DNA from: Escherichia phage BF17
Sequence record: MW822008.1
DNA length: 64,000 nucleotides
Reading direction: 5' to 3' (one strand)
This document shows, in pieces, positions 13,953 through 28,897 of this stretch; position 1 is the first letter of the stretch; every line of letters starts with the position of its first letter. The position numbers and the translations under genes were made by a program. Under the pieces are notes generated by a model. That model was not told the DNA's origin and made no database searches. It was given only the letters and a program-made list of their open reading frames with translations.

Positions 13953-13998
13953 ATTGTTTGCTGGTGGCTAGTACTGAAAACTATTTTTAAAAAAGTAC

Positions 13999-14026: not shown

Positions 14027-14030
14027 GTTT

Positions 14031-14114: not shown

Positions 14115-14142
14115 TTGACAATAGAAAGTAAACGAGTATAAT
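14115..14142 (+). promoter_or_regulatory. sigma70 promoter P2 (TTGACA-16-TATAAT)
   Basis: TTGACA 14115-14120, TATAAT 14137-14142. Confidence 0.65.
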
Positions 14143-14175
14143 ACTTACATCAACCACTGATAAGGAAACATTAAA

Positions 14176-14451: not shown

Positions 14452-14454
14452 GTA

Positions 14455-14482
14455 TTGACAAAGTATCTTAGTACTGTATAAT
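14455..14482 (+). promoter_or_regulatory. sigma70 promoter with 5' stem-loop
   Basis: TTGACA 14455-14460, TATAAT 14477-14482, hairpin GGGGGAAtggTTCCCCTCC. Confidence 0.7.
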
Positions 14483-14537
14483 AGTTTACATCGAGAGGGG
14501 GAATGGTTCCCCTCCTAACAAAGAGAGAGAAATAAAA

Positions 14538-14720
14538 ATGGCTAAATGCACTATCTGCAAGAAAGAAATAGTATTAGTTCCAAGTGCCCGTGAACGTGCC
14601 GCTCGGTTCGGTGGCAAAGCGTCAGACTATACAAAAATGTTTACTACCCATGCAGCTTGCCAGGTAGCAAAACGTTCACAAGAAAGCGTAGAATTAATGC
14701 GTAAACTTTCCAAAAAATAA
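14538..14720 (+). CDS. small Cys-containing basic protein (60 aa; CTIC...ACQ)
   Basis: ORF track; RBS AGAGAGAGAAA. Confidence 0.7.
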   Translation: MAKCTICKKEIVLVPSARERAARFGGKASDYTKMFTTHAACQVAKRSQESVELMRKLSKK

Positions 14721-14723
14721 GTA

Positions 14724-14751
14724 TTGACAAAGTATCTTAGTACTGTATAAT
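14724..14751 (+). promoter_or_regulatory. sigma70 promoter with 5' stem-loop
   Basis: TTGACA 14724-14729, TATAAT 14746-14751. Confidence 0.7.
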
Positions 14752-14808
14752 AGTTTACATCAAGTGAGGGGAAACGGTTCCCCTCCTAACAAAGAGAGAG
14801 AAATAAAA

Positions 14809-15132
14809 ATGGCTATGATCCTTGCCCAGAAAGTAGAACTGAAAATTGTAACCTCCTTTGACATTAAAGTTAATCGGTGGACTGATTCACACGGCAATAC
14901 TTACCACTCTTGCTACGTGTCCGCGTTAATTGGCGACCGCTGGGAAGACTTGGGACATGAAACCTTTACTTACGGTTACGGTACACAAGGAGAATACACG
15001 GGCTTGGAGATCATTAAAGAAACCGTTATAGGTTTCAACCCGAAAGAAAAAGTTATTCACCGCATCGAAAAAGAGATTAACAAAGAAATAACAGTTCGCT
15101 ACTACGATGTAAAACGTAAGAAAGACATGTAA
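14809..15132 (+). CDS. hypothetical protein (107 aa); paralog of 8391..8714
   Basis: ATG 14809; track start 14764 lies in leader. Confidence 0.75.
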   Translation: MAMILAQKVELKIVTSFDIKVNRWTDSHGNTYHSCYVSALIGDRWEDLGHETFTYGYGTQGEYTGLEIIKETVIGFNPKEKVIHRIEKEINKEITVRYYDVKRKKDM

Positions 15133-15146
15133 TAGAATCCATTTAA

Positions 15147-15183
15147 AGTACTATTTGACATTGCCCAGATAGTACTTTATAAT
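15147..15183 (+). promoter_or_regulatory. Promoter TTGACA-17-TATAAT enclosed by palindrome AAGTACTAT...ATAGTACTT
   Basis: TTGACA 15155-15160, TATAAT 15178-15183; same architecture as 2783-2819. Confidence 0.65.
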
Positions 15184-15227
15184 AGACTCTAACTTGTAGT
15201 ACTAACTCAACTAATAGGATGTATACC

Positions 15228-15623
15228 ATGATTACTAAATTCTACGCTACCCGTGAAGCTGCCCGTATTGTTGCACGCGAGGAAGGAGCAGCATTTAAAG
15301 ACATGGGCAAAGATGCACCGAAAGGTCAACGCTGGGCCGTACAGTTCAAAGAAATCTCTGATATTGTGAATTCACCTGAGCCAGTACTAACAGCAGCAGA
15401 ACTAAAACGAGCGGATTTACTGGCGGCAGTACTTAACGCACAAGATGAATTTATCGCTGATTCTGATATCAAAGTACAGACAAACCATACCGCTTGGACT
15501 CACGCGGATCACCTGGCAAACCTTAAGCGTCCAAGTGAACTGGTTCGCAACCAGAAAGAGATCCGACACGACCGTAAGGGTAATCGTGTAACAGTATACA
15601 GTAAACGCCGCCAGGTTATCTAA
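15228..15623 (+). CDS. hypothetical protein (131 aa); paralog of 2856..3122
   Basis: ATG 15228 with RBS AGGA 15215-15218. Confidence 0.75.
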   Translation: MITKFYATREAARIVAREEGAAFKDMGKDAPKGQRWAVQFKEISDIVNSPEPVLTAAELKRADLLAAVLNAQDEFIADSDIKVQTNHTAWTHADHLANLKRPSELVRNQKEIRHDRKGNRVTVYSKRRQVI

Positions 15624-15643
15624 TAACTTGCAGTACTAACAAC

Positions 15644-15671
15644 ACGGCGGGATCAGTTCCCGCCTTTTTTA
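15644..15671 (+). terminator. Rho-independent terminator
   Basis: hairpin GGCGGGatcagttCCCGCC then TTTTTT. Confidence 0.75.
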
Positions 15672-15685
15672 TAGGATAAACTAAA

Positions 15686-15940
15686 ATGATTAAGGTACAA
15701 CTATCTAAAGATAATATCTTGCGGGTACACTATAAAGCACCACAGAGAATCATCACAAAGGCCGTACAGCTTGCTAATGAGTTTATTAATGGTAACCTAT
15801 TACCAAGGAAGTTAAGCAACGGAAAACTGCGTGTAATCGATGTAGACACTAACAACAGAATAGTAATTGAGAACACAGGAAAGATAAACCTATATGAACA
15901 CCAACAATATAATAAGAAAATAAAACTAATATCACGTTGA
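15686..15940 (+). CDS. hypothetical basic protein (84 aa)
   Basis: ORF track; RBS AGGA. Confidence 0.65.
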   Translation: MIKVQLSKDNILRVHYKAPQRIITKAVQLANEFINGNLLPRKLSNGKLRVIDVDTNNRIVIENTGKINLYEHQQYNKKIKLISR

Positions 15941-15965
15941 CAGTACTCAATTGTTTTAGTATTAT
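15937..15965 (+). promoter_or_regulatory. sigma70 promoter (TTGACA-17-TATTAT); duplicated cassette with 16213-16241
   Basis: TTGACA 15937-15942, TATTAT 15960-15965; leader TACACATACCAACACGGG shared. Confidence 0.6.
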
Positions 15966-15993
15966 GTACACATACCAACACGGGAGAAACAAA

Positions 15994-16212
15994 ATGAAAT
16001 TATCTAAAATCGAAAAGAAAACTATTGATGAAGCAGTTAAGCACGGTTATACCTTTCGTAATGATTCACATTTTACCAATTTTCAACAAGGCCAAAGGAC
16101 TATTAAAAAACTAATTGACAAAGGTTTATTAGTTAAAGTAGATAACGGTAACGGCATTGAGTATCAGCCAACCCAAGACGCATTATCTTTAAAGAAATAT
16201 GCAATTATCTAA
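15994..16212 (+). CDS. hypothetical protein (72 aa)
   Basis: ATG 15994; track start 15937 is the TTG of the -35. Confidence 0.7.
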   Translation: MKLSKIEKKTIDEAVKHGYTFRNDSHFTNFQQGQRTIKKLIDKGLLVKVDNGNGIEYQPTQDALSLKKYAII

Positions 16213-16241
16213 TTGACAGTACTCAAATGTTTTAGTACTAT
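16213..16241 (+). promoter_or_regulatory. sigma70 promoter (TTGACA-17-TACTAT)
   Basis: TTGACA 16213-16218, TACTAT 16236-16241. Confidence 0.6.
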
Positions 16242-16269
16242 ATGTACATACCAACACGGGGAAAACAAA

Positions 16270-16512
16270 ATGATTACTTTAGAAAAACGTATCAAAGAAA
16301 CTACATCGCTGGTGGAACTGTTAACAGTACTGAAATGCCGTACTACTCGGTTTAGTACACCGGACTTTATTAATATGGTTGATGTTAACGGTCGTTATCG
16401 CATTGCAGTAGAACATGGAACAGCGAAAGTATTCAGTACTAAAAACACTAAGGAAGTGATTCACGCGGTTAGTGTGAAAAAAGTGGTTGCCATTGATAGT
16501 AAAGTACTGTAA
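16270..16512 (+). CDS. hypothetical protein (80 aa)
   Basis: ATG 16270, RBS GGGGAAAA. Confidence 0.7.
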   Translation: MITLEKRIKETTSLVELLTVLKCRTTRFSTPDFINMVDVNGRYRIAVEHGTAKVFSTKNTKEVIHAVSVKKVVAIDSKVL

Positions 16513-16543
16513 GATAGTTTCATTAACTCAAGGAGAACATGCA

Positions 16544-17128
16544 ATGCGTAATTATACTAAATTCATCCGTACCCTGTCAGAAATGGAAACCAACAAAGAG
16601 ATCCTTTCAGCTTGTCGGTTAGCTGGTCTGGAGATCATCGGTGCGGGTTCTTCCCGTATTGTATTCGCTTTAAATGATCGGTTAGTGATTAAGGTCGCCA
16701 ATTGTGATGCGGGTGTAGAACAAAATGAAACTGAATGTAAGGTATGGAATTTTTTAGACTATGACCGCCCTCAATTGAAACAGTACTTTGCAAAGGTGCA
16801 TATGCATTTATGCGATCCTGATAATATGTTTATCGTTATGGATCGGTTGAGTACTGCAAGCAAAGGCAGTGTAAAGCACGTTAACGCGTGCAACGAATTA
16901 AAGTACAATATTAAACGTAATGCCATTGAACGCCAGCACCGCTTTGCTGATGCACTACAACACGTCGATGATACATTATCAACACTAACGATAAGAGATA
17001 TCAGAAAACAGAATATCGGCCAGGATCGTAATGGACTTATTAAAGTACTTGATTACGGTTTAACCCGCAATATCTGGAATCAGTACTATAAAAAGCGTGA
17101 TGTGGCAGCAAGTAAAGTAACACGATAA
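16544..17128 (+). CDS. putative small atypical protein kinase (194 aa) with Hanks-like catalytic motifs
   Basis: IIGAGSSRIVF (Gly-rich loop), VIKV (Lys), IRDIRKQNIG (cf. HRDxKxxN), VLDYGL (cf. DFG); ATG 16544 with RBS AAGGAG. Confidence 0.55.
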   Translation: MRNYTKFIRTLSEMETNKEILSACRLAGLEIIGAGSSRIVFALNDRLVIKVANCDAGVEQNETECKVWNFLDYDRPQLKQYFAKVHMHLCDPDNMFIVMDRLSTASKGSVKHVNACNELKYNIKRNAIERQHRFADALQHVDDTLSTLTIRDIRKQNIGQDRNGLIKVLDYGLTRNIWNQYYKKRDVAASKVTR

Positions 17129-17141
17129 AAAAGATTAAAAA

Positions 17142-17225
17142 AGGGATTGATTTCGGTCAGTCCCTTTGCTATTATATATTCATTGAGAGATAGCTCACTG
17201 ACCCACAGGGTGCATAAATGTATCT
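17142..17225 (+). promoter_or_regulatory. Composite module: terminator-like hairpin overlapping promoter plus conserved element ACCCACAGGGTGCATAAATGTATC
   Basis: hairpin GGGATTGAtttcgGTCAGTCCC 17143-17165; element 17201-17225. Confidence 0.55.
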
Positions 17226-17268
17226 ATTATATAAGTATTCAGTACTGAAAACTATTTTTAAAAAGTAC

Positions 17269-17296
17269 TTGCATTGTACTTAGAATCAAGTATAAT
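17269..17296 (+). promoter_or_regulatory. sigma70 promoter with 5' stem-loop
   Basis: TTGCAT 17269-17274, TATAAT 17291-17296. Confidence 0.7.
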
Positions 17297-17351
17297 GTTT
17301 TATATCGAGAGGGGGGGAACGGTTCTCCCTCAAAGAATAAGGAATAAAATC

Positions 17352-17573
17352 ATGACTACAATGACTTGCATTTACGCTTCCAATCTTCTGAATGATGCGG
17401 CCTTTAATGTTGATTCAGAATATCAATGTTATCGGGATGAAAATAAAAAAGTTTTTGTAGTTGATAATAATGGTTTCCATATTGAAATACAATCCGGCTT
17501 CACTGGTGTTGATGGTAAATCAGTATGGGGCGTACAGGATGATAACGGTACATATCATTTTAAACGTAATTAA
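17352..17573 (+). CDS. hypothetical protein (73 aa)
   Basis: ATG 17352, RBS AAGGAA. Confidence 0.75.
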   Translation: MTTMTCIYASNLLNDAAFNVDSEYQCYRDENKKVFVVDNNGFHIEIQSGFTGVDGKSVWGVQDDNGTYHFKRN

Positions 17574-17576
17574 GTA

Positions 17577-17604
17577 TTGACAAAGTATCTTAGTACTGTA
17601 TAAT
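17577..17604 (+). promoter_or_regulatory. sigma70 promoter with 5' stem-loop
   Basis: TTGACA 17577-17582, TATAAT 17599-17604. Confidence 0.7.
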
Positions 17605-17657
17605 AGTTTACATCAAGGGGAGAATAGTTCTCCCCGATACTAAAAGGAAACAAAATT

Positions 17658-17930
17658 ATGTCCAGCTACTCCGCTACTATGATCATTAAAGATATGAACG
17701 GTAATCCTACTTCCGCTGGTGGATCATTTGGAAACATTAATTTAGATGGTCGGTTATCCATGCAATCAGCCATCGATGCAGCGAAAGAAGTTTTTAAGAA
17801 TGAATGCACTGTAAGCAAGCTGGATTATATGGGATTCGCTATCGAGAAAACTAATCGTTTTGTGAACTACAAAAATCCACTGATGATTGATACTAACCTG
17901 AAAGCTAACGAAGTGGAATACTTATTATGA
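17658..17930 (+). CDS. hypothetical protein (90 aa)
   Basis: ORF track; RBS AAGGAAA. Confidence 0.75.
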   Translation: MSSYSATMIIKDMNGNPTSAGGSFGNINLDGRLSMQSAIDAAKEVFKNECTVSKLDYMGFAIEKTNRFVNYKNPLMIDTNLKANEVEYLL

Positions 17931-18118
17931 CAGTTGAAGAAGTTAAAAAAGTACTGGCAGTACTACGCTATCATAATCATTGCAAGGTGAAGAATGATCC
18001 TGATTATGTTGATTCATCCCTGGAGGAAGACACATTAAACGCAATAAGCCATATGCAAACATTAGCAAAGCGTATGACCGAAAAGAATAGACCGGACTAT
18101 ATCGGAAATAAAATTTAA
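17927..18118 (+). CDS. hypothetical protein (63 aa)
   Basis: ATGA start/stop overlap with 17658 gene. Confidence 0.6.
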   Translation: MTVEEVKKVLAVLRYHNHCKVKNDPDYVDSSLEEDTLNAISHMQTLAKRMTEKNRPDYIGNKI

Positions 18119-18125
18119 AAAGTAC

Positions 18126-18153
18126 TTGCATTGTAGTTAGATTAACGTATAAT
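18126..18153 (+). promoter_or_regulatory. sigma70 promoter with 5' stem-loop
   Basis: TTGCAT 18126-18131, TATAAT 18148-18153, hairpin GCGGGGGAAtagtTCTCCCGCC. Confidence 0.7.
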
Positions 18154-18204
18154 GTTTTACATAGAGCGGGGGAATAGTTCTCCCGCCAGTCCAGGAGATA
18201 CACC

Positions 18205-18468
18205 ATGAACACTATCGAAATCACTATCAATGCACACGTATACGACAACGTAGTACTGCAAACTACTATGACCGCTAACGATACCAGTACTTTGCGGAAT
18301 ACTGTTATTAGTGCCGTATGTGCCGCTATCGGTGATGTCGCCCTGGAAAATGCAAAACACGTAAACGATGGTTTCACTATGTGCAAACGTGATAACGCAA
18401 AACATATCATCGTGGAAGGTTACGGCGGTGTAGAATTTAATGTTTATATGAAAAAAGTACTTGCATAA
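18205..18468 (+). CDS. hypothetical protein (87 aa)
   Basis: ORF track; RBS CAGGAG; 3' end overlaps next promoter -35. Confidence 0.7.
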   Translation: MNTIEITINAHVYDNVVLQTTMTANDTSTLRNTVISAVCAAIGDVALENAKHVNDGFTMCKRDNAKHIIVEGYGGVEFNVYMKKVLA

Positions 18469-18488
18469 TAACTAAAACAAAGTATAAT
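18461..18488 (+). promoter_or_regulatory. sigma70 promoter with 5' stem-loop
   Basis: TTGCAT 18461-18466, TATAAT 18483-18488. Confidence 0.7.
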
Positions 18489-18535
18489 GTTTTGCATAGG
18501 GGGAGATGTCCTCCCCCACTAAAAGGAGTAATAAA

Positions 18536-18760
18536 ATGGCTAACTTTGATGAACTGATGCGGGAAGTAGCTAACCTGGCAGAAGAGAAAAAATCATTCGA
18601 TTCTATCTATAACACCTCTTACCGTGATTCAGTACTGGCATGTAACCAGGATCAAAAAGATGAACTAATCGCCACCTATCATGAAGCATGGAAGTACTAC
18701 CGACAATGGGAGAAAGAAGAAAGAGAGTCTACCATTGACGGCCTCAATAATCTAATCTAA
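18536..18760 (+). CDS. hypothetical protein (75 aa)
   Basis: ATG 18536, RBS AAAGGAG. Confidence 0.75.
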   Translation: MANFDELMREVANLAEEKKSFDSIYNTSYRDSVLACNQDQKDELIATYHEAWKYYRQWEKEERESTIDGLNNLI

Positions 18761-18773
18761 AAGTTTTATTTCA

Positions 18774-18808
18774 GTACTATTGACATAGCTTGATAGTACT
18801 GATGTAAT
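18774..18808 (+). promoter_or_regulatory. Palindromic promoter cassette (copy 5, diverged -10)
   Basis: AGTACTAT-TGACATAGCTTG-ATAGTACT; TTGACA 18780-18785. Confidence 0.6.
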
Positions 18809-18836
18809 AACTTTACTAACTACAAGGGGAAACATC

Positions 18837-19094
18837 ATGGAACAATTCACACAATATCGGGTAAATCCTCAAGCTATGGCCTACGTAGAAGACCATAAAA
18901 CGTTACCAGTACTGCAACCAGTTAAAGGCCATATCTATCGTGCAATGTCGTGGAGTACGGCCCAGGATGGCTATAAAACCGTAGCCGTTGGTATGTACTG
19001 CGGTAATGGTGAATGGTTTGATCCAAATAATCCGGTAGCCATTGACAGTACTGAAAAAATGAAATGGGCCGACTACATCGAAGATATTTCATAA
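18837..19094 (+). CDS. hypothetical protein (85 aa)
   Basis: ORF track; RBS AAGGGGAAA. Confidence 0.7.
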   Translation: MEQFTQYRVNPQAMAYVEDHKTLPVLQPVKGHIYRAMSWSTAQDGYKTVAVGMYCGNGEWFDPNNPVAIDSTEKMKWADYIEDIS

Positions 19095-19107
19095 AAAGAA
19101 TAAAAAA

Positions 19108-19187
19108 AAGGAGTTGACTTCGGTCCGCTCCTTTAGTACTATATACGCATAGAAACAAATCAGCCCACAGGGTGCATAAGTGTATCC
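19108..19187 (+). promoter_or_regulatory. Composite module: terminator-like hairpin overlapping promoter plus conserved element AGCCCACAGGGTGCATAAGTGTATC
   Basis: hairpin about 19109-19133; element 19162-19187; Chi GCTGGTGG 19222-19229 downstream. Confidence 0.55.
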
Positions 19188-19254
19188 AAAATATATAGTT
19201 AATAACGGTGAGTAACTATCTGCTGGTGGAACTAAAACTATTAATAAAAAAGTA

Positions 19255-19283
19255 TTGACAAAGTATATCAGTACTGCAATAAT
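19255..19283 (+). promoter_or_regulatory. sigma70-like promoter (TTGACA-17-AATAAT)
   Basis: TTGACA 19255-19260; GC-rich leader hairpin. Confidence 0.55.
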
Positions 19284-19336
19284 GTATCTCGTAGGGCGGC
19301 AATGGTGCGACGGCCCACAAAGTTAGGAGATTCAAA

Positions 19337-19669
19337 ATGAGTACTTCAATCGCTATCGTTAAAGCTTTCATCCGTACCAATGTTTCATCTGTATTCATCG
19401 ACGGTCTGGATCGGGAAGTAGAATACTCAATCATTATCGCACAGACTGCAAACGGTGCTCGGTATATCCTTAATGATAGTGAAGCAAATCACTACTACTT
19501 CACTAAAGCTACTGGCTTTAAACGCATCGATGCTGATGTAGTATACGCTAAGATGAATAAGCTGGTAGACAAGATTAACGCTAAAGGTACTATAGATTTA
19601 CAGTACTGGACCGAAACCGATCCAGAATATGGATCTCACCGCTACCTGAATCCAGGTATTAAAATGTAA
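19337..19669 (+). CDS. hypothetical protein (110 aa)
   Basis: ORF track; RBS AGGAG. Confidence 0.75.
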   Translation: MSTSIAIVKAFIRTNVSSVFIDGLDREVEYSIIIAQTANGARYILNDSEANHYYFTKATGFKRIDADVVYAKMNKLVDKINAKGTIDLQYWTETDPEYGSHRYLNPGIKM

Positions 19670-19676
19670 AAAGTAC

Positions 19677-19704
19677 TTGCATAGTACTTAGAATCAAGTA
19701 TAAT
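19677..19704 (+). promoter_or_regulatory. sigma70 promoter with 5' stem-loop
   Basis: TTGCAT 19677-19682, TATAAT 19699-19704, hairpin GGGGGAAatggTTCTCCCTCC. Confidence 0.7.
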
Positions 19705-19758
19705 GTTTTACATAGAGAGGGGGAAATGGTTCTCCCTCCTAAATTAAGGAGTTTTATC

Positions 19759-20160
19759 ATGACCTTCTCAATCAATTCCTTCGCTGACGTTTTAGTACTG
19801 GCTCGGACTTTCGGTAAAGATGCACTGGAGTACGCTGTAAGTAATGGCACTATCCAACCGGAACAGTGCCGCATCATTGGAAACTGCAAACGTTGGGCGG
19901 TATCCAATACTATTGCACTGGAAAACTTCCACGATGGCAACAATGAATATTCTGTTGATGTAGTATTCGAAGCCGTTGATCTCGGCGGTATCTATAATAC
20001 TAACCTGAATGATGTGCGTATCGTTCGCACGGGGTTCGGTGCTTATGATGTATCTATCCGTGAAGCTATGGACAACGGATACATTAGCAAGGACTTACTT
20101 GCTCACATCATGCAGCTGTGTACGGAACGTAACGAAGCACGCACTATCTTAGGACTGTAA
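19759..20160 (+). CDS. hypothetical protein (133 aa)
   Basis: ATG 19759, RBS AAGGAG. Confidence 0.75.
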   Translation: MTFSINSFADVLVLARTFGKDALEYAVSNGTIQPEQCRIIGNCKRWAVSNTIALENFHDGNNEYSVDVVFEAVDLGGIYNTNLNDVRIVRTGFGAYDVSIREAMDNGYISKDLLAHIMQLCTERNEARTILGL

Positions 20161-20228
20161 GCGTTACACATCACCAAACATCATAGGCCGCCTTGTAGCG
20201 GCCTTAACTATATCAGGAGTACATACAT

Positions 20229-20438
20229 ATGTTCTATACAGTATACAGCGTTCTAGGTACTATTGCAGGCGTACATGATAACGTCAATGATGCTATGCGT
20301 ACAGTACTGCAACAGGTTCCACTAAAGCCTAAGACCATTAAGCAGATGACAGCACGACTAACCAGGGCGACCGATGGCGTGGAAGTATGGCAGGACTACG
20401 GGGATACACAGATAATCGTTAGCGTAACGAAGGATTAA
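20229..20438 (+). CDS. hypothetical protein (69 aa)
   Basis: ORF track; RBS CAGGAG; GC-rich hairpin upstream. Confidence 0.65.
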   Translation: MFYTVYSVLGTIAGVHDNVNDAMRTVLQQVPLKPKTIKQMTARLTRATDGVEVWQDYGDTQIIVSVTKD

Positions 20439-20439
20439 T

Positions 20440-20720
20440 GCGTAAAGGGATCTAGTACTGATTCAGAAAAAAGTCAAGGCGTTTTTAAAATTATGCGTTA
20501 AAAAAATGCATAGGTAATCCCTTGACTTTTTTGAAATAAAAGGGATTGGACTATGGCAAAATGCGTAGGGGGCTAAAGGGCGGGTAACCTTTAGCGACTT
20601 CGAAAAAAGGAGTGATAGGGGCTTGACTTTTTATATAATTCTGATAATATATAGTCTATATTATATTTCATTCATATTTTATATGTTAGTTACATTAACT
20701 CAACTTTAGAGGTCACCGAA
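20440..20720. other. Intergenic boundary between moderate-GC early module and AT-rich paralog-array module
   Basis: three YTTGACTTTTT copies in alternating orientation; GC-rich GGGGGCTAAAGGGCGGG; promoter/RBS style changes after this point. Confidence 0.5.
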
Positions 20721-20722
20721 CT

Positions 20723-21088
20723 ATGAATCCATCATCTAATAAATGTGGTACTTCCTTTAATGTAGAATGGTTGTTTTTTAAACCTACATCTACTATAAAA
20801 TCATTCATTGCTGATATCACTGAAGCACCTGACACCCTTGTATCAGTTGTTAGCAACAATAACGAAATGGTATTTTCTATTGATGAAAATCAATATGCAG
20901 ATATCTATTCATTGATTCGTATAAAAAACTTAGTTGTACTGTCCGAGAAAGCGTTCGCAAAAGAAGCGAAGAAATGGGATTTTAAACTTCCTATTGAATT
21001 GGTACGTGAAATACAAAAATTGGGATGTACTACTATTGAGAATTGTAAAGACTCACGTGCTACTGGGAATATTTCATTTGAAGTATAA
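20723..21088 (+). CDS. hypothetical protein (121 aa), first gene of AT-rich module
   Basis: ORF track; RBS AGAGG. Confidence 0.65.
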   Translation: MNPSSNKCGTSFNVEWLFFKPTSTIKSFIADITEAPDTLVSVVSNNNEMVFSIDENQYADIYSLIRIKNLVVLSEKAFAKEAKKWDFKLPIELVREIQKLGCTTIENCKDSRATGNISFEV

Positions 21089-21111
21089 TGCATTTATATG
21101 AACAAAACATC

Positions 21112-21140
21112 TTGACATCATGCCTCACATGGGGTATGAT
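21112..21140 (+). promoter_or_regulatory. sigma70-like promoter (TTGACA-17-TATGAT) at head of family A array
   Basis: TTGACA 21112-21117, TATGAT 21135-21140. Confidence 0.6.
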
Positions 21141-21174
21141 GTTTTTTCACATATGAACCTATGGATTTTATCCT

Positions 21175-21372
21175 ATGCGTATTTTAACTAAAGAACAGCA
21201 CCACGAAAGACTTATCAATAACATGGCTATGATAATGTATAAGTCCCATGACCGTGGTATTGCCTATAAGCGTGAATTAATTATGGCACTATTCATTGGA
21301 ACTAACTTTCAGGAAAGGTATGTCAACGATTGGATTTGGTATTTAATTGAAGATATAACGAGTAAACTATGA
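21175..21372 (+). CDS. family A paralog (motif FIGTNFQE)
   Basis: ORF track; about 65 aa; conserved LGTNYQE-type core. Confidence 0.65.
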   Translation: MRILTKEQHHERLINNMAMIMYKSHDRGIAYKRELIMALFIGTNFQERYVNDWIWYLIEDITSKL

Positions 21373-21569
21373 AAATGCGTATTTTAAATAAAGAAGAATA
21401 TCAATCACTGTTACGTAAAAACTTCACAAAGATTTATAATACAGACACACACGTAGAACGAATGGAGTTATACCTTTTGATTACTTTGGGAACTAACTAT
21501 CAGGAAAGATGGGTGATTCAATATATGGATACATTGAAAAATAAAATATTGTCCACGAGGAAACAATGA
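21369..21569 (+). CDS. family A paralog (TLGTNYQE)
   Basis: ATGA overlap with upstream gene. Confidence 0.65.
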   Translation: MKMRILNKEEYQSLLRKNFTKIYNTDTHVERMELYLLITLGTNYQERWVIQYMDTLKNKILSTRKQ

Positions 21570-21775
21570 AAACTATAACACGAACCCAATCATACGGTCT
21601 TATCTTGAAATACATGGACTTAATGGTGGATATCAGCAAAGACCTTCCTAAAACTGAAATTGAAGTTGCAAGAGCAGAGATCCGCATGTTGGCTGTACTG
21701 AACACAAACCATCAGGAAGATTATGTTGAAGAATGGATTCGATTTTTAATAGAAGATATAAAGAGTAAATTATGA
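21566..21775 (+). CDS. family A paralog (VLNTNHQE)
   Basis: ATGA overlap. Confidence 0.65.
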   Translation: MKTITRTQSYGLILKYMDLMVDISKDLPKTEIEVARAEIRMLAVLNTNHQEDYVEEWIRFLIEDIKSKL

Positions 21776-21987
21776 TTATTATAGAAAACTCATATCAATA
21801 TACTGAACGCATCGCTGCCAGACAACTTGAAATCCTCATAATATACGAAGAGACTTCTGATTTAAACTTAGCCGAGGTATTGGAAAATGATATACTATTG
21901 GGTGCATTCTTAGGAACAGACTATCAGAAGTATTATGAGGAAAAGTATTTGTCATCTCTTGAGAAATATATCAGGAGCAAATTATGA
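21772..21987 (+). CDS. family A paralog (FLGTDYQK)
   Basis: ATGA overlap. Confidence 0.65.
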   Translation: MIIIENSYQYTERIAARQLEILIIYEETSDLNLAEVLENDILLGAFLGTDYQKYYEEKYLSSLEKYIRSKL

Positions 21988-22196
21988 TTTTTTTAACACC
22001 AGAAGAATATAAGAAACGTTTCAATTCCGCACAGGGTGAAATCTTACTTATATACCTTTCAAATGCAGACCTTAACTTATCAAGGGTATTAGAAAAAGAT
22101 TTACTTATGGGTGCATTCCTTGATACAGACTTTCAGGTGTATTATGTAGGGGAATACTTAATTGCACTCCAGAAATACATTAAGAGCAAACTATGA
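21984..22196 (+). CDS. family A paralog (FLDTDFQV)
   Basis: ATGA overlap. Confidence 0.65.
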   Translation: MIFLTPEEYKKRFNSAQGEILLIYLSNADLNLSRVLEKDLLMGAFLDTDFQVYYVGEYLIALQKYIKSKL

Positions 22197-22411
22197 AACA
22201 TTTAAGTAATTACGAGAAGAATAAAATTATCGTTGCTGCAATAAACAAATATTTTACACTTCCTCACACAGAAGGTTTATGTGTAAGGGAACACAGGATA
22301 AACACCACCGATATACGCATGATGGCTGTACTGGGGACGAACTTTCAGGAAGAGTATGTTGTTGCACACATAGTTGCCCTCACTGATTTAATAAGGGACA
22401 AATGCAAATGA
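22193..22411 (+). CDS. family A paralog (VLGTNFQE)
   Basis: ATGA overlap. Confidence 0.65.
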   Translation: MKHLSNYEKNKIIVAAINKYFTLPHTEGLCVREHRINTTDIRMMAVLGTNFQEEYVVAHIVALTDLIRDKCK

Positions 22412-22716
22412 AACACTTAACTGATGATGAATTTGAAACTATAATTCGTAAACTAACCCCCATCACAAGGATAGTCTACGGTGACCCCAGCCTTACATGG
22501 AACCAAATGCGAGCTAAAGTTAATGAGCTATGGTTGCTGTACTTTATGGGGACTCAATATCAAGATAAGTTTTGCACAGAATATATCGAACAATTAACGA
22601 ATGTTATACAGGATAAACTAGATGATTATTTGCTCACAAAACATGAAGATTTTATCAGGAGTGGAGTATCAGACTGCCCTCTTCTCTCTTCTAAACACCC
22701 TCCGCACGAACAATAA
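22402..22716 (+). CDS. family A paralog (FMGTQYQD) with C-terminal extension
   Basis: 104 aa; 3' end overlaps next paralog by about 74 nt. Confidence 0.55.
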   Translation: MQMKHLTDDEFETIIRKLTPITRIVYGDPSLTWNQMRAKVNELWLLYFMGTQYQDKFCTEYIEQLTNVIQDKLDDYLLTKHEDFIRSGVSDCPLLSSKHPPHEQ

Positions 22717-22894
22717 ACTTTATAATTCCCGTGAAGCTGATATCGTCAACGCTGATGTATATCTTAATAAATTCATAGGGACTAACTATCAAGAACTGTT
22801 CACTCTACGATATATCGCTGCATTGAGAAACGAAATATCAGATAAAACCCGTCAAGCCAGAAGAGAATGGAATAAACAATGCGACACAGACTAA
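22643..22894 (+). CDS. family A paralog (FIGTNYQE)
   Basis: internal ATG 22643 of ORF 22622. Confidence 0.55.
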   Translation: MKILSGVEYQTALFSLLNTLRTNNKLYNSREADIVNADVYLNKFIGTNYQELFTLRYIAALRNEISDKTRQARREWNKQCDTD

Positions 22895-23130
22895 ATCACA
22901 AAATGTATTGTAAACTATTACAGACACTGGCACAGAAACACTATGACACTGTATCTGAAATATTACCCTATGATATCATGCGTTTAATTCATAGTGAGGC
23001 AGAGATGCTTGTACTGATGACAGGCACTGATAAAAAAGCAATTGCCAAATCAATAGATATGTTCATCGAAGCACAATGTCAACACATTAGAACCGAGATA
23101 TGGAGACGAGAGAATGATAACACTAAATGA
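22879..23130 (+). CDS. family A paralog, divergent (LMTGTDKK)
   Basis: ORF track; position in array. Confidence 0.55.
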   Translation: MRHRLNHKMYCKLLQTLAQKHYDTVSEILPYDIMRLIHSEAEMLVLMTGTDKKAIAKSIDMFIEAQCQHIRTEIWRRENDNTK

Positions 23131-23329
23131 GTTTCAGTATCATTGGAGGTTACAAACTATCAAATCAAAAGTGTATAGTATTGTGTTAAACAAATCTATT
23201 GCACAAGAGGACAAATGTGTTATAATAGCTGAAATGAAGTTGGGTGCTTTCGTAGGGACAAACTATCAAAACATCTACACTGACGTATTGTTAAGTGCCT
23301 TACGTAACAAGGTGGTATCCAAAATATGA
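23114..23329 (+). CDS. family A paralog (FVGTNYQN)
   Basis: ORF track. Confidence 0.65.
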   Translation: MITLNEFQYHWRLQTIKSKVYSIVLNKSIAQEDKCVIIAEMKLGAFVGTNYQNIYTDVLLSALRNKVVSKI

Positions 23330-23544
23330 GAAATTTACAAGGCTTTGAATACATCAGACTCCTGAAAACATGCACCAGCAGAAGGAAAATCTTATCAAGC
23401 GATAAGAGCATCCAAGCTAACCTTAAGCACGCACTAGTAACTGAACTCTATGTAGGTGCACTCTTAGGCACAAACTATCAACAAATGTATGTAGATCTAT
23501 GGATTGACGCTCTACAGAAAGAGGTTAAAAGTAAATGCAAATGA
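23326..23544 (+). CDS. family A paralog (LLGTNYQQ)
   Basis: ATGA overlap. Confidence 0.65.
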   Translation: MRNLQGFEYIRLLKTCTSRRKILSSDKSIQANLKHALVTELYVGALLGTNYQQMYVDLWIDALQKEVKSKCK

Positions 23545-23753
23545 TTAATTTAAGTAAAGACGAATTTTATGTTATACTGGCGAAAACTTATCCAGCACGT
23601 AAGGCCGTTTATGATAGTCACATTATTGAACCCTCAAAGAAGTTGATTTTAGTAAATGAGATAAAGATGCTTTCAGTCTTAGGAACAAACTATCAAGAGA
23701 ATGCTGTACTGATGTTAATTGATGCCCTCCAGCGAGAGGTTAAACGTAAATGA
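23535..23753 (+). CDS. family A paralog (VLGTNYQE)
   Basis: ORF track. Confidence 0.65.
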   Translation: MQMINLSKDEFYVILAKTYPARKAVYDSHIIEPSKKLILVNEIKMLSVLGTNYQENAVLMLIDALQREVKRK

Positions 23754-23980
23754 AAATGATTAATTTAACTTACCATGAATATCAAAAACGTTTAAATGCA
23801 TCCAGAGATATAAGGATTCAAATATTCAATAACAAAAGATTGAAGCCTGATATCAGGAAAATCAAAATCATAGAAGCCGTGTTGTGCAACTTCCTAGGGA
23901 CTAACTATCAGGAAGGTAAGGTAGAAAACTATCTTATAGAACTCATGAATAGTATTGAAAATAAATGTAAGGGTAATTAA
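23750..23980 (+). CDS. family A paralog (FLGTNYQE)
   Basis: ATGA overlap. Confidence 0.65.
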   Translation: MKMINLTYHEYQKRLNASRDIRIQIFNNKRLKPDIRKIKIIEAVLCNFLGTNYQEGKVENYLIELMNSIENKCKGN

Positions 23981-23981
23981 C

Positions 23982-24221
23982 ATGAAAATGATTAAATTAT
24001 CTCAAGCAAAATATAAAGAACGCCTGGTAAAAATTGCACCTGGACTTAATGAAATCCATCACGGAGAAGTCATTAAACACGGAAATAAGATGATTATGAA
24101 ACTTGAGTTAAAGGTGGGTGCATTCATAGGAACAAACTATCAGGAGTATTATGTAGATGAATACATAATCGCACTTAAGAGATACATTGGAAGAAAACTA
24201 TATCTACAAACTAAAGAATAG
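23982..24221 (+). CDS. family A paralog (FIGTNYQE)
   Basis: internal ATG of ORF 23955; junction AAATGTAAGGGTAATTAACATG repeated at next gene. Confidence 0.6.
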   Translation: MKMIKLSQAKYKERLVKIAPGLNEIHHGEVIKHGNKMIMKLELKVGAFIGTNYQEYYVDEYIIALKRYIGRKLYLQTKE

Positions 24222-24250
24222 TATTGAAAATAAATGTAAGGGTAATTAAC

Positions 24251-24514
24251 ATGCAAATGATCAATTTAAGTAAAGATGAATATACCGAGCGTATGACAAA
24301 AATTACGCACAAACGTAATACAATCTATCACAACCCAGAAATTCAACACAGTAAGAAAATGATTATGATGCGTGAGTTAAAGATGGGTGTATTCTTAGGA
24401 ACAAACTATCAAGATACAGAAGTAAATCGCTTAATCGCGGAGTTGCTACTGGAAATCAGAGGTAAGCTGTACTTTCATCAAATGACCCAACCACTGAGGT
24501 GTACTAAGAAATGA
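24251..24514 (+). CDS. family A paralog (FLGTNYQD)
   Basis: internal ATG of ORF 24224; duplicated junction. Confidence 0.6.
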   Translation: MQMINLSKDEYTERMTKITHKRNTIYHNPEIQHSKKMIMMRELKMGVFLGTNYQDTEVNRLIAELLLEIRGKLYFHQMTQPLRCTKK

Positions 24515-24726
24515 TCAACATCACATTGCAAGAAAGATTCATCCGAATCAACTATGCAATTACCAAATTAGATGCTACTATAGGATTCCAAAGTCTACCA
24601 TACAAAACCAGATTGTTATTAGAGTGTGAAGCTAAGTTGGGTGTACTATTAGGGACGCAACACCAACAACGATATGTGGAAATCTGGATTGATCTTTTAA
24701 CCCAGGATGTACATGAGAGAATGTAA
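24511..24726 (+). CDS. family A paralog (LLGTQHQQ)
   Basis: ATGA overlap. Confidence 0.65.
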   Translation: MINITLQERFIRINYAITKLDATIGFQSLPYKTRLLLECEAKLGVLLGTQHQQRYVEIWIDLLTQDVHERM

Positions 24727-24981
24727 ATGCAAAATGAAATGATATACTTAACCTATAATGAATACGTCGAGAGATTAGTTCGTGCCAAGAGATATACCAA
24801 TAAACGTCCAATTGACCTAAACCAAACCCCTGCCGAAAGGAGTGCAGAAGTTTTATTCCAATCACTACCATACCTTCTTGGAACTGATAGACAAGAGGAA
24901 TATGTTGCACGTATGATTAGATATCTTAAAATCACTATTAAGGAAAAAGTAAATGCAAATGAAATACTTAACAGACGATGA
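24727..24981 (+). CDS. family A paralog (LLGTDRQE)
   Basis: ORF track. Confidence 0.65.
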   Translation: MQNEMIYLTYNEYVERLVRAKRYTNKRPIDLNQTPAERSAEVLFQSLPYLLGTDRQEEYVARMIRYLKITIKEKVNANEILNRR

Positions 24982-25204
24982 GTTAAAAGAACGACTAATT
25001 AAATCCAGAAAACTTACAAATCAACTTCCAAACGACACAAACAAGTCACATGCCGAAAGGAGTGCAGAAGTTTTATACATTCAACTCATGTACTTTCTTG
25101 GCACTGACAGACAAGAGTATTACATTGAAAGTATGCTTCGATATCTTAAATTCTCTATAAAGGAAAAGATACATGCTCAAGAATTTAAAAATCCTAACAG
25201 TTAA
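24953..25204 (+). CDS. family A paralog (FLGTDRQE)
   Basis: ORF track; close paralog of 24727 gene (HAERSAEVL shared). Confidence 0.65.
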   Translation: MQMKYLTDDELKERLIKSRKLTNQLPNDTNKSHAERSAEVLYIQLMYFLGTDRQEYYIESMLRYLKFSIKEKIHAQEFKNPNS

Positions 25205-25415
25205 TGAATATCATACGATTGTAATGAAAACTAATAGTGCAATTTCTAAAAAATCAAACCCCAAGTACATACTGGAACACACATTCGAAGAACGTCAATT
25301 AGCTTTAGTTGAAGCAAAACTTCTTGCACTCCTAGGAACAAACTATCAGGAAGAATACATCAGAAAACTAATATACCTTTTAACTAAACATATAAGAAAA
25401 AGAAAAAATGCATGA
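25173..25415 (+). CDS. family A paralog (LLGTNYQE)
   Basis: ORF track. Confidence 0.65.
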   Translation: MLKNLKILTVNEYHTIVMKTNSAISKKSNPKYILEHTFEERQLALVEAKLLALLGTNYQEEYIRKLIYLLTKHIRKRKNA

Positions 25416-25642
25416 AACACTTGACAGATGATGAACATGGACTTATAGTAATGGATGTAATCAACATCGAATACAAAAAGTTGATACGCTACCGTTGTTA
25501 TGAAGATAAGCAACTCGTTCTAGCAGAACAGAAGTTGTTTCGACTCTTAAACACAAACTTCCAAGCACAATACGAAGAATCGTATATGTACCTTTTGGCG
25601 AGGAAAGCAAAAAGAGATTATGAAAATTTTAAGCAAAGGTGA
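25412..25642 (+). CDS. family A paralog (LLNTNFQA)
   Basis: ATGA overlap. Confidence 0.65.
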   Translation: MKHLTDDEHGLIVMDVINIEYKKLIRYRCYEDKQLVLAEQKLFRLLNTNFQAQYEESYMYLLARKAKRDYENFKQR

Positions 25643-25841
25643 TTCAGTAATATTACTTATAGAGAGTTCAAGTAAATTCTTAAACATAACACTGTCTGAT
25701 ATAGATGAAGATGACAAAGAAGTACTGAGAGCAGATTTAAGAGTACTGTTACATATCGGAACAAACCTACAAGAAGAATATGTAGAGTGCTACATTAATG
25801 AACTTAAAGAATCAGTACTGAGAAAATGCAAATGCAAATGA
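25620..25841 (+). CDS. family A paralog (HIGTNLQE)
   Basis: ORF track. Confidence 0.65.
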   Translation: MKILSKGDSVILLIESSSKFLNITLSDIDEDDKEVLRADLRVLLHIGTNLQEEYVECYINELKESVLRKCKCK

Positions 25842-26065
25842 AAATCATTTCACCCACAGAATACAACCAACTATTAAGTAGTTTAATTCTAAAGCTGTTT
25901 ATAACAAAAAGCATGAAATTACCAGATGATGAAATAAGTATTCTAGTAAGTGAAATCTATGTTCAAGCTACACTAGGGACTAACTATCAAGAATGCAATA
26001 TTAATGATTACATCAATGAACTAAAAAGGTTTATCCAATGCAAATGCGAATCATTACCGAAGTAG
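25826..26065 (+). CDS. family A paralog (TLGTNYQE)
   Basis: ORF track. Confidence 0.65.
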   Translation: MQMQMKIISPTEYNQLLSSLILKLFITKSMKLPDDEISILVSEIYVQATLGTNYQECNINDYINELKRFIQCKCESLPK

Positions 26066-26280
26066 AATACCTAACAATCATAAATGGACTGTTTTCGAAG
26101 TTATTTGCCATTAACACATCAAAACTTCCAGATTCTGATAAAATTATTAAGTTAAATGAAATCTACGTTCAAGCTACTCTAGGAACAAACTATCAAGAAG
26201 CCAATGTGTATAATTACATTAATACACTCAAAAGGGTAATACAATTAAAATGCACAGACAGCACACACACAAACCCCTAG
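26038..26280 (+). CDS. family A paralog (TLGTNYQE)
   Basis: close paralog of 25826 gene. Confidence 0.65.
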   Translation: MQMRIITEVEYLTIINGLFSKLFAINTSKLPDSDKIIKLNEIYVQATLGTNYQEANVYNYINTLKRVIQLKCTDSTHTNP

Positions 26281-26480
26281 GAACAGCAGAATACATTGAA
26301 CTAATGGCTGCAAACTTCTCATCCTTTAAGAAACTGATGCAAGAATCAAAGAATGATTTAGAATATCACATCAAAAGTTCAGATTTAAGATTGCTACTCA
26401 CTCTAGGAACAGATTCCCAAGAGCGATTTGTCAATGAGCATATTAGAGCACTTTTAAATGGCATCAGGAATAAACTATGA
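26250..26480 (+). CDS. family A paralog (TLGTDSQE)
   Basis: ORF track. Confidence 0.6.
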   Translation: MHRQHTHKPLGTAEYIELMAANFSSFKKLMQESKNDLEYHIKSSDLRLLLTLGTDSQERFVNEHIRALLNGIRNKL

Positions 26481-26693
26481 AGGAAATATCAAATCAAGAG
26501 TACTTGGCACTATTCAGGAAGAATAATCACAAATATATGGCACTTGATTCAAGAACTGATATAAGTGAACTTGAAAAAAAATCTTTTGCGTTCAGAGATG
26601 ATAGTACTGACACTCTTAGGAACACAGCATCAAGAGAGAACTGTTAATTCACACATAGGGATTCTTATGCAGATAGTTCAGGAAAAGATATGA
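26477..26693 (+). pseudogene. family A paralog disrupted by +1 frameshift at an A8 homopolymer
   Basis: N-terminal frame MKEISNQEYLALF... stops at 26645-26647; the C-terminal ...MIVLTLLGTQHQERTVNSHIGILMQIVQEKI is in the +1 frame; A-run 26574-26581. Confidence 0.6.
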
Positions 26694-26911
26694 GAATCAT
26701 AACACAACAAGATATTCTTAAGTTCACAAGGGTTCATGCATCTGAATTTGATGCTATATTATCAAAAAGTTACAACAACCCTTATACACAAGATGTACAT
26801 TACAGTGAATTATGGATGTATATACTTTTAGGTACAAATAAGCAAGAGCAAGCCGTACAGAAGTATTTGACAGCTTTACGTGATGCTACTGCTAATGGAG
26901 TATGTGTTTAA
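26690..26911 (+). CDS. family A paralog (LLGTNKQE)
   Basis: ORF track. Confidence 0.65.
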   Translation: MRIITQQDILKFTRVHASEFDAILSKSYNNPYTQDVHYSELWMYILLGTNKQEQAVQKYLTALRDATANGVCV

Positions 26912-26912
26912 T

Positions 26913-27155
26913 ATGAAAGTACTGACAGAAATAGAAATGTATCATAGATTTAATAAGTACTATCATTTACTTAAGCCTATACAGAGGATTAAATGTCCAT
27001 TTGAAGAGAAACAGGTTTTAATCTATGAGCACAAGTTCTTTGTATCATTAGGTACAGATCAACAAGAGTACTATTTGACGTTGTACTTGATTACATTAAT
27101 AGATTTAATTCACTATAAAACCAAACAAGCTAATAAAGAGAAATATGAAAACTAA
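26913..27155 (+). CDS. family A paralog (SLGTDQQE)
   Basis: internal ATG of ORF 26880. Confidence 0.6.
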   Translation: MKVLTEIEMYHRFNKYYHLLKPIQRIKCPFEEKQVLIYEHKFFVSLGTDQQEYYLTLYLITLIDLIHYKTKQANKEKYEN

Positions 27156-28157: not shown

Positions 28158-28465
28158 AATTTAATATAGCAAAAACATCTAATATATGTATATTTGGTTA
28201 TGCCGAAGAGTTGGGTGATATTGACATTCTTTTGTACAAAAAGGATGGTGTTATGCATTTCAAGTACCAGGATGAAGAGGCAGACAATTATCTTTTACCT
28301 AATTTAGTACAAATGCAGGAAGATGAATTATTCCAGTACAGCTTAGTATACGACATTGATATTTGCACGATGCCAGTACTAATTAGTATTCAAAAAGTGA
28401 TGCTCGATATGTATGATAAGCTAATACAAGGTATGTCAGGGAGGATCATTGAAATTGACATATAA
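28148..28465 (+). CDS. family B paralog (EDELFQYSLVYD)
   Basis: ORF track. Confidence 0.65.
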   Translation: MEMKFNIAKTSNICIFGYAEELGDIDILLYKKDGVMHFKYQDEEADNYLLPNLVQMQEDELFQYSLVYDIDICTMPVLISIQKVMLDMYDKLIQGMSGRIIEIDI

Positions 28466-28661
28466 GAATATACCTAATGCATATGAAATGAAGTACAGGG
28501 AGTTTATTAAAAATGTACACACCGATCCTTTTAATATCAAAATATCAGATTTTGATGTATTATTTTATCTAGGGACAATAGCACAGGATCAATGCGTTGA
28601 TAAGCTCATATGGTCCTTGAAAATGGAGATACAATGCAGACCCAAATATATAAAAAGGTAG
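28449..28661 (+). CDS. family A-like paralog (YLGTIAQD)
   Basis: ORF track. Confidence 0.55.
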   Translation: MKLTYKNIPNAYEMKYREFIKNVHTDPFNIKISDFDVLFYLGTIAQDQCVDKLIWSLKMEIQCRPKYIKR

Positions 28662-28897
28662 ATTCTTTATTGTACGCTTCAAAGTACAGGGATTTTTGTT
28701 TACGAGGGGGAGAGGAAGATTTCTCTCTGAGATTATCTGAATTTAATATGTTATTTTATCTTGGTACAAAAGATCAAGAAGATACAGTACAGAAATTTAT
28801 CAAGCACCTTGAACAAAAAATTCATATGCAAATTTTTATGCTTAAGGTACATAATGAGATAAACAAATATGAACCCAACAATAGTACAGGATCTTAA
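28634..28897 (+). CDS. family A-like paralog (YLGTKDQE)
   Basis: internal ATG of ORF 28610. Confidence 0.55.
   Translation: MQTQIYKKVDSLLYASKYRDFCLRGGEEDFSLRLSEFNMLFYLGTKDQEDTVQKFIKHLEQKIHMQIFMLKVHNEINKYEPNNSTGS

Follow-up and report, generated by a model that had tools for sequence, protein, structure and literature searches.

The window analysed here is the left 64 kb of the genome of Escherichia phage BF17 (MW822008.1), an Asteriusvirus (PBECO4/phAPEC6/121Q-like) jumbo coliphage, and comprises the direct terminal repeat (DTR) followed by unique sequence. Near the start of the unique sequence, 27 small genes of one family, here called family A, stand head to tail between positions 21175 and 27155. 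Family A is a real, maintained and genus-restricted family, predicted to form a new small three-helix module, with a repertoire that varies between strains. Judged from the sequences, it appears to be an old multigene family that arose by tandem duplication and is confined to Asteriusvirus-type jumbo phages. We tentatively propose that the array is a co-transcribed battery of diversified modules that bind host proteins, expressed early and serving takeover of the host or counter-defence, a possibility weighed below against its alternatives.

Anatomy, fold and distribution of family A

A profile hidden Markov model (HMM) built from the array units was run over the six frames of the window. It recovered, together with the listing of open reading frames (ORFs), 27 tandem members, all on the plus strand and with no gap of more than 2 nucleotides (nt), the intact units matching at E 1e-17 to 1e-26. 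Four dispersed plus-strand copies bring the family to 31 (Table 1), and beyond these no match with E <0.3 was found in the six frames. An original prediction, made from the letters of the DNA alone, had described 27 tandem genes and four dispersed copies, and this description was confirmed by the HMM and, for nine of ten tested members, independently by PHROG 4148. Three of the dispersed copies start where it had placed them (28449, 42082 and 42278), but the second begins at 28610 and not at 28634. The predicted unit length of about 65–75 amino acids (aa) holds for the shared domain of ~70 aa, whereas the longest ORFs span 65–104 aa. The claim that nearly all junctions are ATGA overlaps was too strong: 16 of the 27 stop codons lie within an ATGA and 14 of the 26 internal junctions are in-frame ATGA couplings, while the others overlap by 10–95 nt or are spaced by 0–2 nt.

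As a correction to the prediction, not all of the 27 genes are intact. Unit 25 is split over two frames by one extra (eighth) A in an A8 run at 26574–26581. The orthologues carry A7 in JP4 and phAPEC6 and an interrupted run in WPEC3, with an intact 71-aa gene in all three; the change is either a homopolymer sequencing error, a very recent frameshift, or a natural on/off slippage site.

Nine of ten tested members matched the profile of PHROG 4148, a family of unknown function. Strong matches were obtained for eight members (E 1e-17 to 1e-27, profile positions 1–72 of 74); those of unit 20 and of the dispersed copy 28610 were weak (~1e-5), and the divergent unit 9 gave none. Since PHROG 4148 has no functional annotation, membership supplies a name only. 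No Pfam-A family scored above its gathering threshold (best PDH_C for one member, E 0.0046, 17.7 bits versus a cut-off of 22), and the family profile matched neither the PDB sequences nor PADLOC, in line with the earlier statement that the domain was not recognised.

The guess that the proteins are small helical modules also stands. The AlphaFold (AF2) model of unit 14 is a three-helix bundle (predicted local distance difference test, pLDDT, 96.6) with predicted helices at 8–27, 33–47 and 54–78, and BFVD models of family members, obtained by independent prediction, fit onto it with template modelling (TM) scores of 0.85/0.94. No specific structural relative outside the family was found by PDB sequence and fold searches or in BFVD. 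Column analysis showed that conservation is limited to heptad-like hydrophobic positions and one polar cluster, made up of the N-terminal L4-T5-x-x-E8-Y9 and of G-T-(N/D)-x-Q-E at the helix 2/3 turn and the start of helix 3; from the topology of the model, the two segments would share one end of the bundle. The remaining columns have an entropy of >3 bits, and the rest of the surface varies from copy to copy. The isoelectric point (pI) ranges from 4.4 to 9.9 with a basic median of 8.7, and many C-termini are rich in Lys and Arg. Part of the conservation at the termini is explained by the ATGA overlap, which fixes an A at the start of codon 2 (K, I or R) and at the end of the last sense codon. 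The polar motif itself is conserved at the protein level, with synonymous variation in its codons (GGA/GGG/GGC/GGT, ACT/ACA/ACG, CAA/CAG, GAA/GAG).

Only 92 clusters were found when 1.84 billion representative proteins were searched exhaustively with the family profile, and the named matches all come from ~350 kb contigs or Asteriusvirus records. Each of the 92 representatives matches the profile in a single stretch, and their lengths are 49–122 aa with one exception of 269 aa. When unit 11 was compared by tblastn with 50,697 phage records, 34 matched (30 Escherichia and 4 Salmonella phages), and the cultured carriers are all Escherichia or Salmonella Asteriusvirus phages. The records of RaK2, K64-1, GAP32 and CBB, which are relatives according to PMC5259590, gave no match in this search, and the divergent representatives P0061 and P0085, compared with cultured phages by tblastn, gave none either. 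Many members (e.g. P0099, P0112, P0113) are deposited as 'Escherichia coli' proteins on ~350 kb contigs, and these are therefore whole Asteriusvirus genomes within bacterial isolate assemblies, in agreement with preprints on virulent phages persisting in isolates.

As the original prediction held, the units are separate genes: they are annotated as such in related genomes, and neither a domain of known function nor a single fused multi-repeat gene came to light among the global relatives. The sole in-frame fusion of two units, P0093 (units 19 and 20 read through), was seen on one metagenomic contig in a separate 90%-identity search. In the 269-aa exception, P0072, an N-terminal family-A module is followed by 200 aa of orphan sequence; its gene comes shortly after the main array in a variant genome. 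P0072 has no homologue elsewhere among 5.8 billion protein clusters, no Pfam match and no match in the window, and a Rosetta-stone inference through it failed. P0072 and P0088, used as queries against IMG/VR, returned no related loci.

Duplication, selection and repertoire turnover

The paralogues are on average 31.7% identical (maximum 55%), and similarity is slightly higher between neighbouring than between distant units (permutation p = 0.0016), with five adjacent mutual best-partner pairs (units 4/5, 14/15, 17/18, 19/20 and 22/23). The 14/15 junction duplicates the 13/14 junction, an identical TTGAAAATAAATGTAAGGGTAATTAATATG stretch standing upstream of both unit 14 and unit 15; this duplicated junction and the out-of-frame remnant of a unit C-terminus at 24169–24246 are a footprint of unequal crossing-over. 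Adjacency, co-orientation, similar neighbours, a duplicated junction and variable copy number, the marks of a multigene family grown by tandem duplication, are all found here.

Individual units have collinear orthologues in related phages, with pooled ratios of nonsynonymous to synonymous substitutions (dN/dS) of 0.23–0.43 in nine genome comparisons. Over 815 orthologous pairs, which are not mutually independent, pN/pS was 0.39 overall, 0.23 in family-conserved columns and 0.48 in variable columns; pooled pairwise estimates of this kind are insensitive to positive selection. The sites that vary between paralogues are those that drift among orthologues (Spearman 0.71).

Copy number was compared among related phages, as the original prediction had advised, by counting the full-length units in the fetched locus (main array and nearby copies). 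There are 29 in JP4, PBECO4 and WPEC3, 28 in phAPEC6, 26 in vB_Ec-M-J and in Salmonella phage SD-15, where units 22 and 23 are missing, 21 in 121Q and A4, and 17 in Turkey5. The content also changes: units 100% identical between the window and JP4 adjoin a unit only 65% identical, Turkey5 has only two orthologues at ≥60% identity, and 33 of the 92 global clusters are <50% identical to any unit of the ten arrays examined. A divergent metagenomic relative (ENA ERZ14189038, a 101-kb contig) has syntenic DTR genes at 40–85% amino-acid identity and a homologue of the DTR end, after which stand at least 12 tandem family-A units and several dispersed ones, whose best local identity to units of the window is 37–48%. 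Across these comparisons, position and family stay the same, but the set of units is replaced more quickly than the genes on either side. The low identity between paralogues (maximum 55%) points to diversification of the copies rather than dosage.

On the same metagenomic contig, spaced genes like those of the DTR precede the array (9234–12244), and most units have a different N-terminal pattern (…YK..P…), like the dispersed copy 28449 of the window, which hints at two family-A subfamilies. The array of the CMSTMSU record (MH494197.1, 'UNVERIFIED_ORG') is full of frameshifts, with 13 full-length versus 27 partial HMM matches, probably a matter of assembly quality rather than biology.

Genome end, promoters and neighbouring genes

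A DNA search with the region 21000–27500 gave 97% identity with the Escherichia phages JP4 and phAPEC6 and 87–97% with ~30 further Asteriusvirus genomes of 350 kb, PBECO4 and four Salmonella phages among them. An orthologous array (genes 319–341) is present in 121Q, yet its DNA is too divergent for the nucleotide search to detect.

The window and several records that open at the physical genome end align first position to first position. In the vB_Ec-M-J record, 1..21525 is labelled 'Direct Terminal Repeats', the right-hand end of E9.1 aligns to the window as far as 20590 (the boundary falling between ...GGGCGGGTAACCT and TTAGCG, also given as between ...GGGCGGGTAACCT and TTAGCGACTTCG), and fEgEco12 has a 20,993-bp terminal repeat verified by restriction digests (PMC13070987). 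On these grounds the window is the left genome end and the DTR occupies 1..20590. The array thus begins ~0.6 kb beyond the inner end of the repeat, beside it and not within it.

Near-consensus sigma-70 sites were defined as those with at least 11 of 12 matches and a spacer of 16–18, a consensus match only. There are 32 on the plus and 7 on the minus strand of the window, with ~2.8 expected per strand, a roughly ten-fold excess of consensus host promoters on the plus strand. Nineteen of the plus-strand sites lie in the DTR and nine of these are perfect (12/12, TTGACA-16/17-TATAAT); most DTR sites apparently fall in short gaps between individually spaced small genes, a placement not checked against gene boundaries. 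In contrast to the individually spaced small genes of the DTR, the 6 kb and 27 genes of the array stand behind one site, apart from one internal site. The former (21112–21140) had been predicted as the single promoter-like site; it was found again, but the internal site at 25421–25449 matches the consensus equally well (11/12 each), and the latter is possibly a second promoter or a chance occurrence. A terminator scan found no convincing plus-strand terminator within the array, and its anatomy is consistent with co-transcription.

Nearly all relatives have a promoter-like site ahead of unit 1, in two sequence versions. The interval from the DTR end to unit 1 holds a homologue of the TTGACT-type promoter-like site of the window (20623–20650) and a GGAG ribosome-binding site in phAPEC6, JP4, 121Q, WPEC3 and vB_Ec-M-J, where the site directly precedes the array. 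The window and PBECO4 carry, inserted ahead of unit 1, a gene of a second family, family B, and a second, TTGACA-type promoter; the family-B insertion (20723–21088) is absent from phAPEC6, JP4 and vB_Ec-M-J. A4 has another ORF in this interval, followed by the same TTGACA-type promoter.

Family B numbers 33 copies versus the 31 of family A, within the 30 kb after the terminal repeat. The two families are interleaved, with B genes at 20723, 27145, 27455 and 28148 and pairs of A genes embedded at 28.5 kb and 42 kb.

Within the DTR, a small gene at 15680–15937 (plus strand) matches Pfam PF24732, a ParE-like toxin domain, at E 6e-11, which exceeds the gathering score. Its product, a toxin-fold protein amid presumed immediate-early genes, shows 85% amino-acid identity with its counterpart in the divergent metagenomic relative. 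Intergenic sequences of ~80–100 nt are reiterated many times in the DTR at 76–93% identity, as detected by BLAST with a related DTR end (7459–7538, 10252–10359, 13870–13951, 17127–17233, 17259–17356, 18110–18187 and others), and are probably promoter or terminator cassettes. Scans of the window for Rfam families and tRNAs gave no match.

Table 1. Family A units and associated features (window coordinates unless another source is named; E-values from the family HMM unless stated)
Feature	Position	Strand	Remarks
Left direct terminal repeat	1..20590	+	20.6 kb; context of the array, outside family A
TTGACT-type promoter-like site	20623..20650	+	just within unique region
Family-B paralogue between DTR and array	20723..21088	+	phmmer linkage to family B; locus comparison
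Sigma-70-like promoter, TTGACA-17-TATGAT	21112..21140	+	11/12; 34 nt upstream of unit 1; same sequence in PBECO4 and A4
Unit 1	21175..21372	+	65 aa, FIGTNFQE; E 2e-20; PHROG 4148 E 7e-20
Unit 2	21369..21569	+	66 aa; E 9e-20
Unit 3	21566..21775	+	69 aa; E 2e-22
Unit 4	21772..21987	+	71 aa; nearest paralogue unit 5 (51%)
Unit 5	21984..22196	+	70 aa; HMM
Unit 6	22193..22411	+	72 aa; 65% identity to JP4 counterpart, flanking units 97–100%
Unit 7	22402..22716	+	104-aa ORF; C-terminal extension overlapping unit 8
Unit 8	22622..22894	+	domain from ATG at 22643; HMM
Unit 9	22879..23130	+	83 aa; most divergent, TGTDKKA replacing LGTNYQE; E 5e-18; no PHROG match
Unit 10	23114..23329	+	71 aa; HMM
Unit 11	23326..23544	+	72 aa; HMM; tblastn query
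Unit 12	23535..23753	+	72 aa; ATGA-coupled ATG at 23541
Unit 13	23750..23980	+	76 aa; HMM
Unit 14	23982..24221	+	79 aa from ATG; longest ORF from TTG 23955; sequence of structure model
Out-of-frame remnant of unit C-terminus	24169..24246	+	HMM positions 55–72 in another frame
Unit 15	24251..24514	+	87 aa from ATG; HMM
Unit 16	24511..24726	+	71 aa; HMM
Unit 17	24727..24981	+	84 aa; nearest paralogue unit 18 (55%)
Unit 18	24953..25204	+	83 aa; HMM
Unit 19	25173..25415	+	80 aa; fused to unit 20 in metagenomic protein P0093
Unit 20	25412..25642	+	76 aa; HMM; weak PHROG match
Internal sigma-70-like site, TTGACA-17-TATAGT	25421..25449	+	11/12; within 5' end of unit 20
Unit 21	25620..25841	+	73 aa; HMM
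Unit 22	25826..26065	+	79 aa; nearest paralogue unit 23 (53%)
Unit 23	26038..26280	+	80 aa; HMM
Unit 24	26250..26480	+	76 aa; HMM
Unit 25	26477..26693	+	split: ORFs 26477–26647 and 26565–26693
Unit 26	26690..26911	+	73 aa; HMM
Unit 27	26913..27155	+	80 aa from ATG; longest ORF from GTG 26880; 11-nt overlap with family-B gene 27145
Two family-B genes after array	27145–27489, 27455–27850	+	no gap from array; probably same transcript
Dispersed copy	28449..28661	+	TTG start, alternative ATG 28488; E 1e-16
Dispersed copy	28610..28897	+	95 aa; E 1e-19
Dispersed copy	42082..42300	+	72 aa, VGSNKQD variant; E 1e-6
Dispersed copy	42278..42469	+	63 aa, LGTQYQE; E 2e-13
P0072	L013/L014 8001–8810		GCA_036253055.1, variant Asteriusvirus genome; inserted in some strains

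Possible roles of the array

In the proposed battery of host-binding modules, each gene would give a soluble, non-virion three-helix protein of ~70 aa, and the 27 genes would make up a single tightly packed operon with translational coupling, which comes first or second among the transcription units beyond the left terminal repeat. Because this operon lies behind a host-type sigma-70 promoter near the DTR, early transcription by E. coli RNA polymerase is most likely. The related phage PA5oct depends on the host RNA polymerase and shows high early transcription of its DTR genes (PMC7318152); no transcriptome or functional data for an Asteriusvirus were found in the literature searched. Each copy would then engage a different host protein or variant, and the turnover of the repertoire between strains would reflect variable host targets.

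Several points weigh against this proposal. No pervasive positive selection was detected in any region, pN/pS being <1 in every segment, a weaker signal than an arms race predicts, although estimates of this pooled kind are insensitive. Individual units are dispensable, since arrays of 17 to 29 units are all found in viable phages, and unit 25 is frameshifted here without obvious consequence. The conserved polar tip could be purely structural (helix cap plus beta-bridge). No similarity to a known anti-defence or takeover protein was found in the PDB sequence and fold searches or in BFVD, which did not include an anti-defence library. Finally, the proposal goes beyond anatomy, predicted fold, selection pattern, position and promoter context to an expression timing, a binding activity and targets that we infer.

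A further-reaching form of the proposal is distinctly doubtful. On this view the array would encode a germline repertoire of single-domain binders on a new three-helix scaffold, in which the conserved tip docks all copies on a common partner (host protease, chaperone or RNA polymerase) and the variable faces recruit or block defence proteins. If true, it would be an adaptor or inhibitor library reshuffled between strains by cassette exchange, a counter-defence strategy undescribed in phages.

Host-takeover or early modules at phage genome ends include the terminal-redundancy module of SPO1, the pre-early genes of T5 and the hyperplastic regions of T4. Like these and like PA5oct (PMC7318152), the present locus has many small ORFans beside a long terminal repeat, with strong host-type promoters, a single direction and non-virion products. 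It differs in that those modules hold unrelated small genes, usually with their own promoters, whereas here one family is present 27 times in a promoter-poor, coupled block just outside the repeat, for which early timing is presumed. Multigene families also occur in eukaryotic DNA viruses, as in the multigene family (MGF) genes of African swine fever virus and the ankyrin/BTB genes of poxviruses. The array resembles these in its divergent tandem paralogues near the termini, its strain-variable copy number and its presumed roles in host interaction; however, they belong to viruses of another domain of life, share no sequence or fold kinship with family A, and have much larger units than its single domain of ~70 aa. 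Gene accordions of the poxvirus type consist of near-identical recent copies selected for dosage. Tandem duplication and variable copy number are common to both, but the copies of the array are ancient, each with its own orthologue, and no two exceed 55% identity.

Tandem arrays have been noted earlier in phages 121Q and G (Hua et al. 2017, mBio, PMC5646251) and in phAPEC6 (Wagemans et al. 2020, PMC7247149). The array in these reports is probably the same object, although their count may mean family A, family B or both. Each account is a single sentence, without family definition, fold, position, selection analysis or function, and the copies are not 'very similar' as worded there (mean 32%, maximum 55% identity). 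With these reports and PHROG 4148 in existence, the bare observation is not new. The family definition, fold model, exact position relative to the DTR, age of the copies, per-copy purifying selection and cassette-like turnover appear to be.

Hua et al. used the 121Q array as evidence of genome expansion by tandem duplication (PMC5646251), an argument restated by Wagemans et al. (PMC7247149), and under their ratchet idea the copies could be dispensable 'ballast' that fills a larger capsid, weakly kept and with little individual function. The fairly relaxed constraint (dN/dS about 0.4), the copy number of 17 to 29 and the frameshifted copy are what such filler would show. We consider it unlikely, however, as dN/dS is clearly <1, and copies that have diverged to ~30% identity still retain their reading frames, the core that defines the fold and the motif, with synonymously variable codons. 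Array position and family also persist in the distant relative, and the tight translational coupling without decayed spacers is unlike neutral filler.

A role internal to the phage is similarly improbable. The paralogues might bind each other or further phage proteins instead of the host, for instance as parts or chaperones of a phage factory (replication, transcription or assembly) or as partners of family B, as suggested by the interleaving and comparable copy numbers of the two families (31 versus 33) and by the fusion of a family-A module to an unrelated 200-aa domain in P0072. However, the 27 A genes form a solid block, so A and B are not 1:1 gene pairs, and no toxin, enzyme or structural domain is recognisable in family B. 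The main text and table of the phAPEC6 study name none of the array proteins (gp467c–gp489c) as associated with the virion, and strain-specific turnover of units is hard to square with a conserved internal machine.

Bacteria are known to carry arrays of orphan immunity genes. The family is like the colicin/pyocin DNase immunity proteins in its similar size, helical bundle, conserved-plus-variable recognition and faint motif resemblance (TEAEF..., G(S/T)D..YY), and each copy might neutralise a different host nuclease effector. This is very unlikely, as homology was tested and rejected (no Pfam match to PF01320; hhalign probability 0.2% against Im9 and Im7) and the four-helix immunity fold is not seen. 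It is just as hard to credit that the proteins are small DNA- or RNA-binding regulators: the three-helix architecture, the median pI of 8.7 and the Lys/Arg-rich C-termini would suit them, but no helix-turn-helix motif or fold was found in family A. An artefact, whether a mis-assembled or frameshifted repeat protein or chance ORFs, is effectively refuted in spite of the homopolymer frameshift in one unit and the many frameshifts of the low-quality CMSTMSU record, as the same separate genes occur in >30 independently sequenced genomes, with HMM E-values down to 1e-26, dN/dS <1 and single-domain relatives throughout.

The present analysis gives family A, formerly a one-line remark in the literature, a definition, a fold model, gene boundaries, a map of its conserved and variable positions and an expression model open to test. 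To specialists it is no surprise, but it is a well-defined and experimentally tractable unknown. A compact natural scaffold for binding might also be drawn from its ~90 known sequence clusters. Much of a jumbo-phage genome is taken up by genes without known function, and knowledge of what this array does would explain part of the takeover of diverse E. coli and Salmonella hosts, which is of relevance to phage therapy as Asteriusvirus phages are under development.

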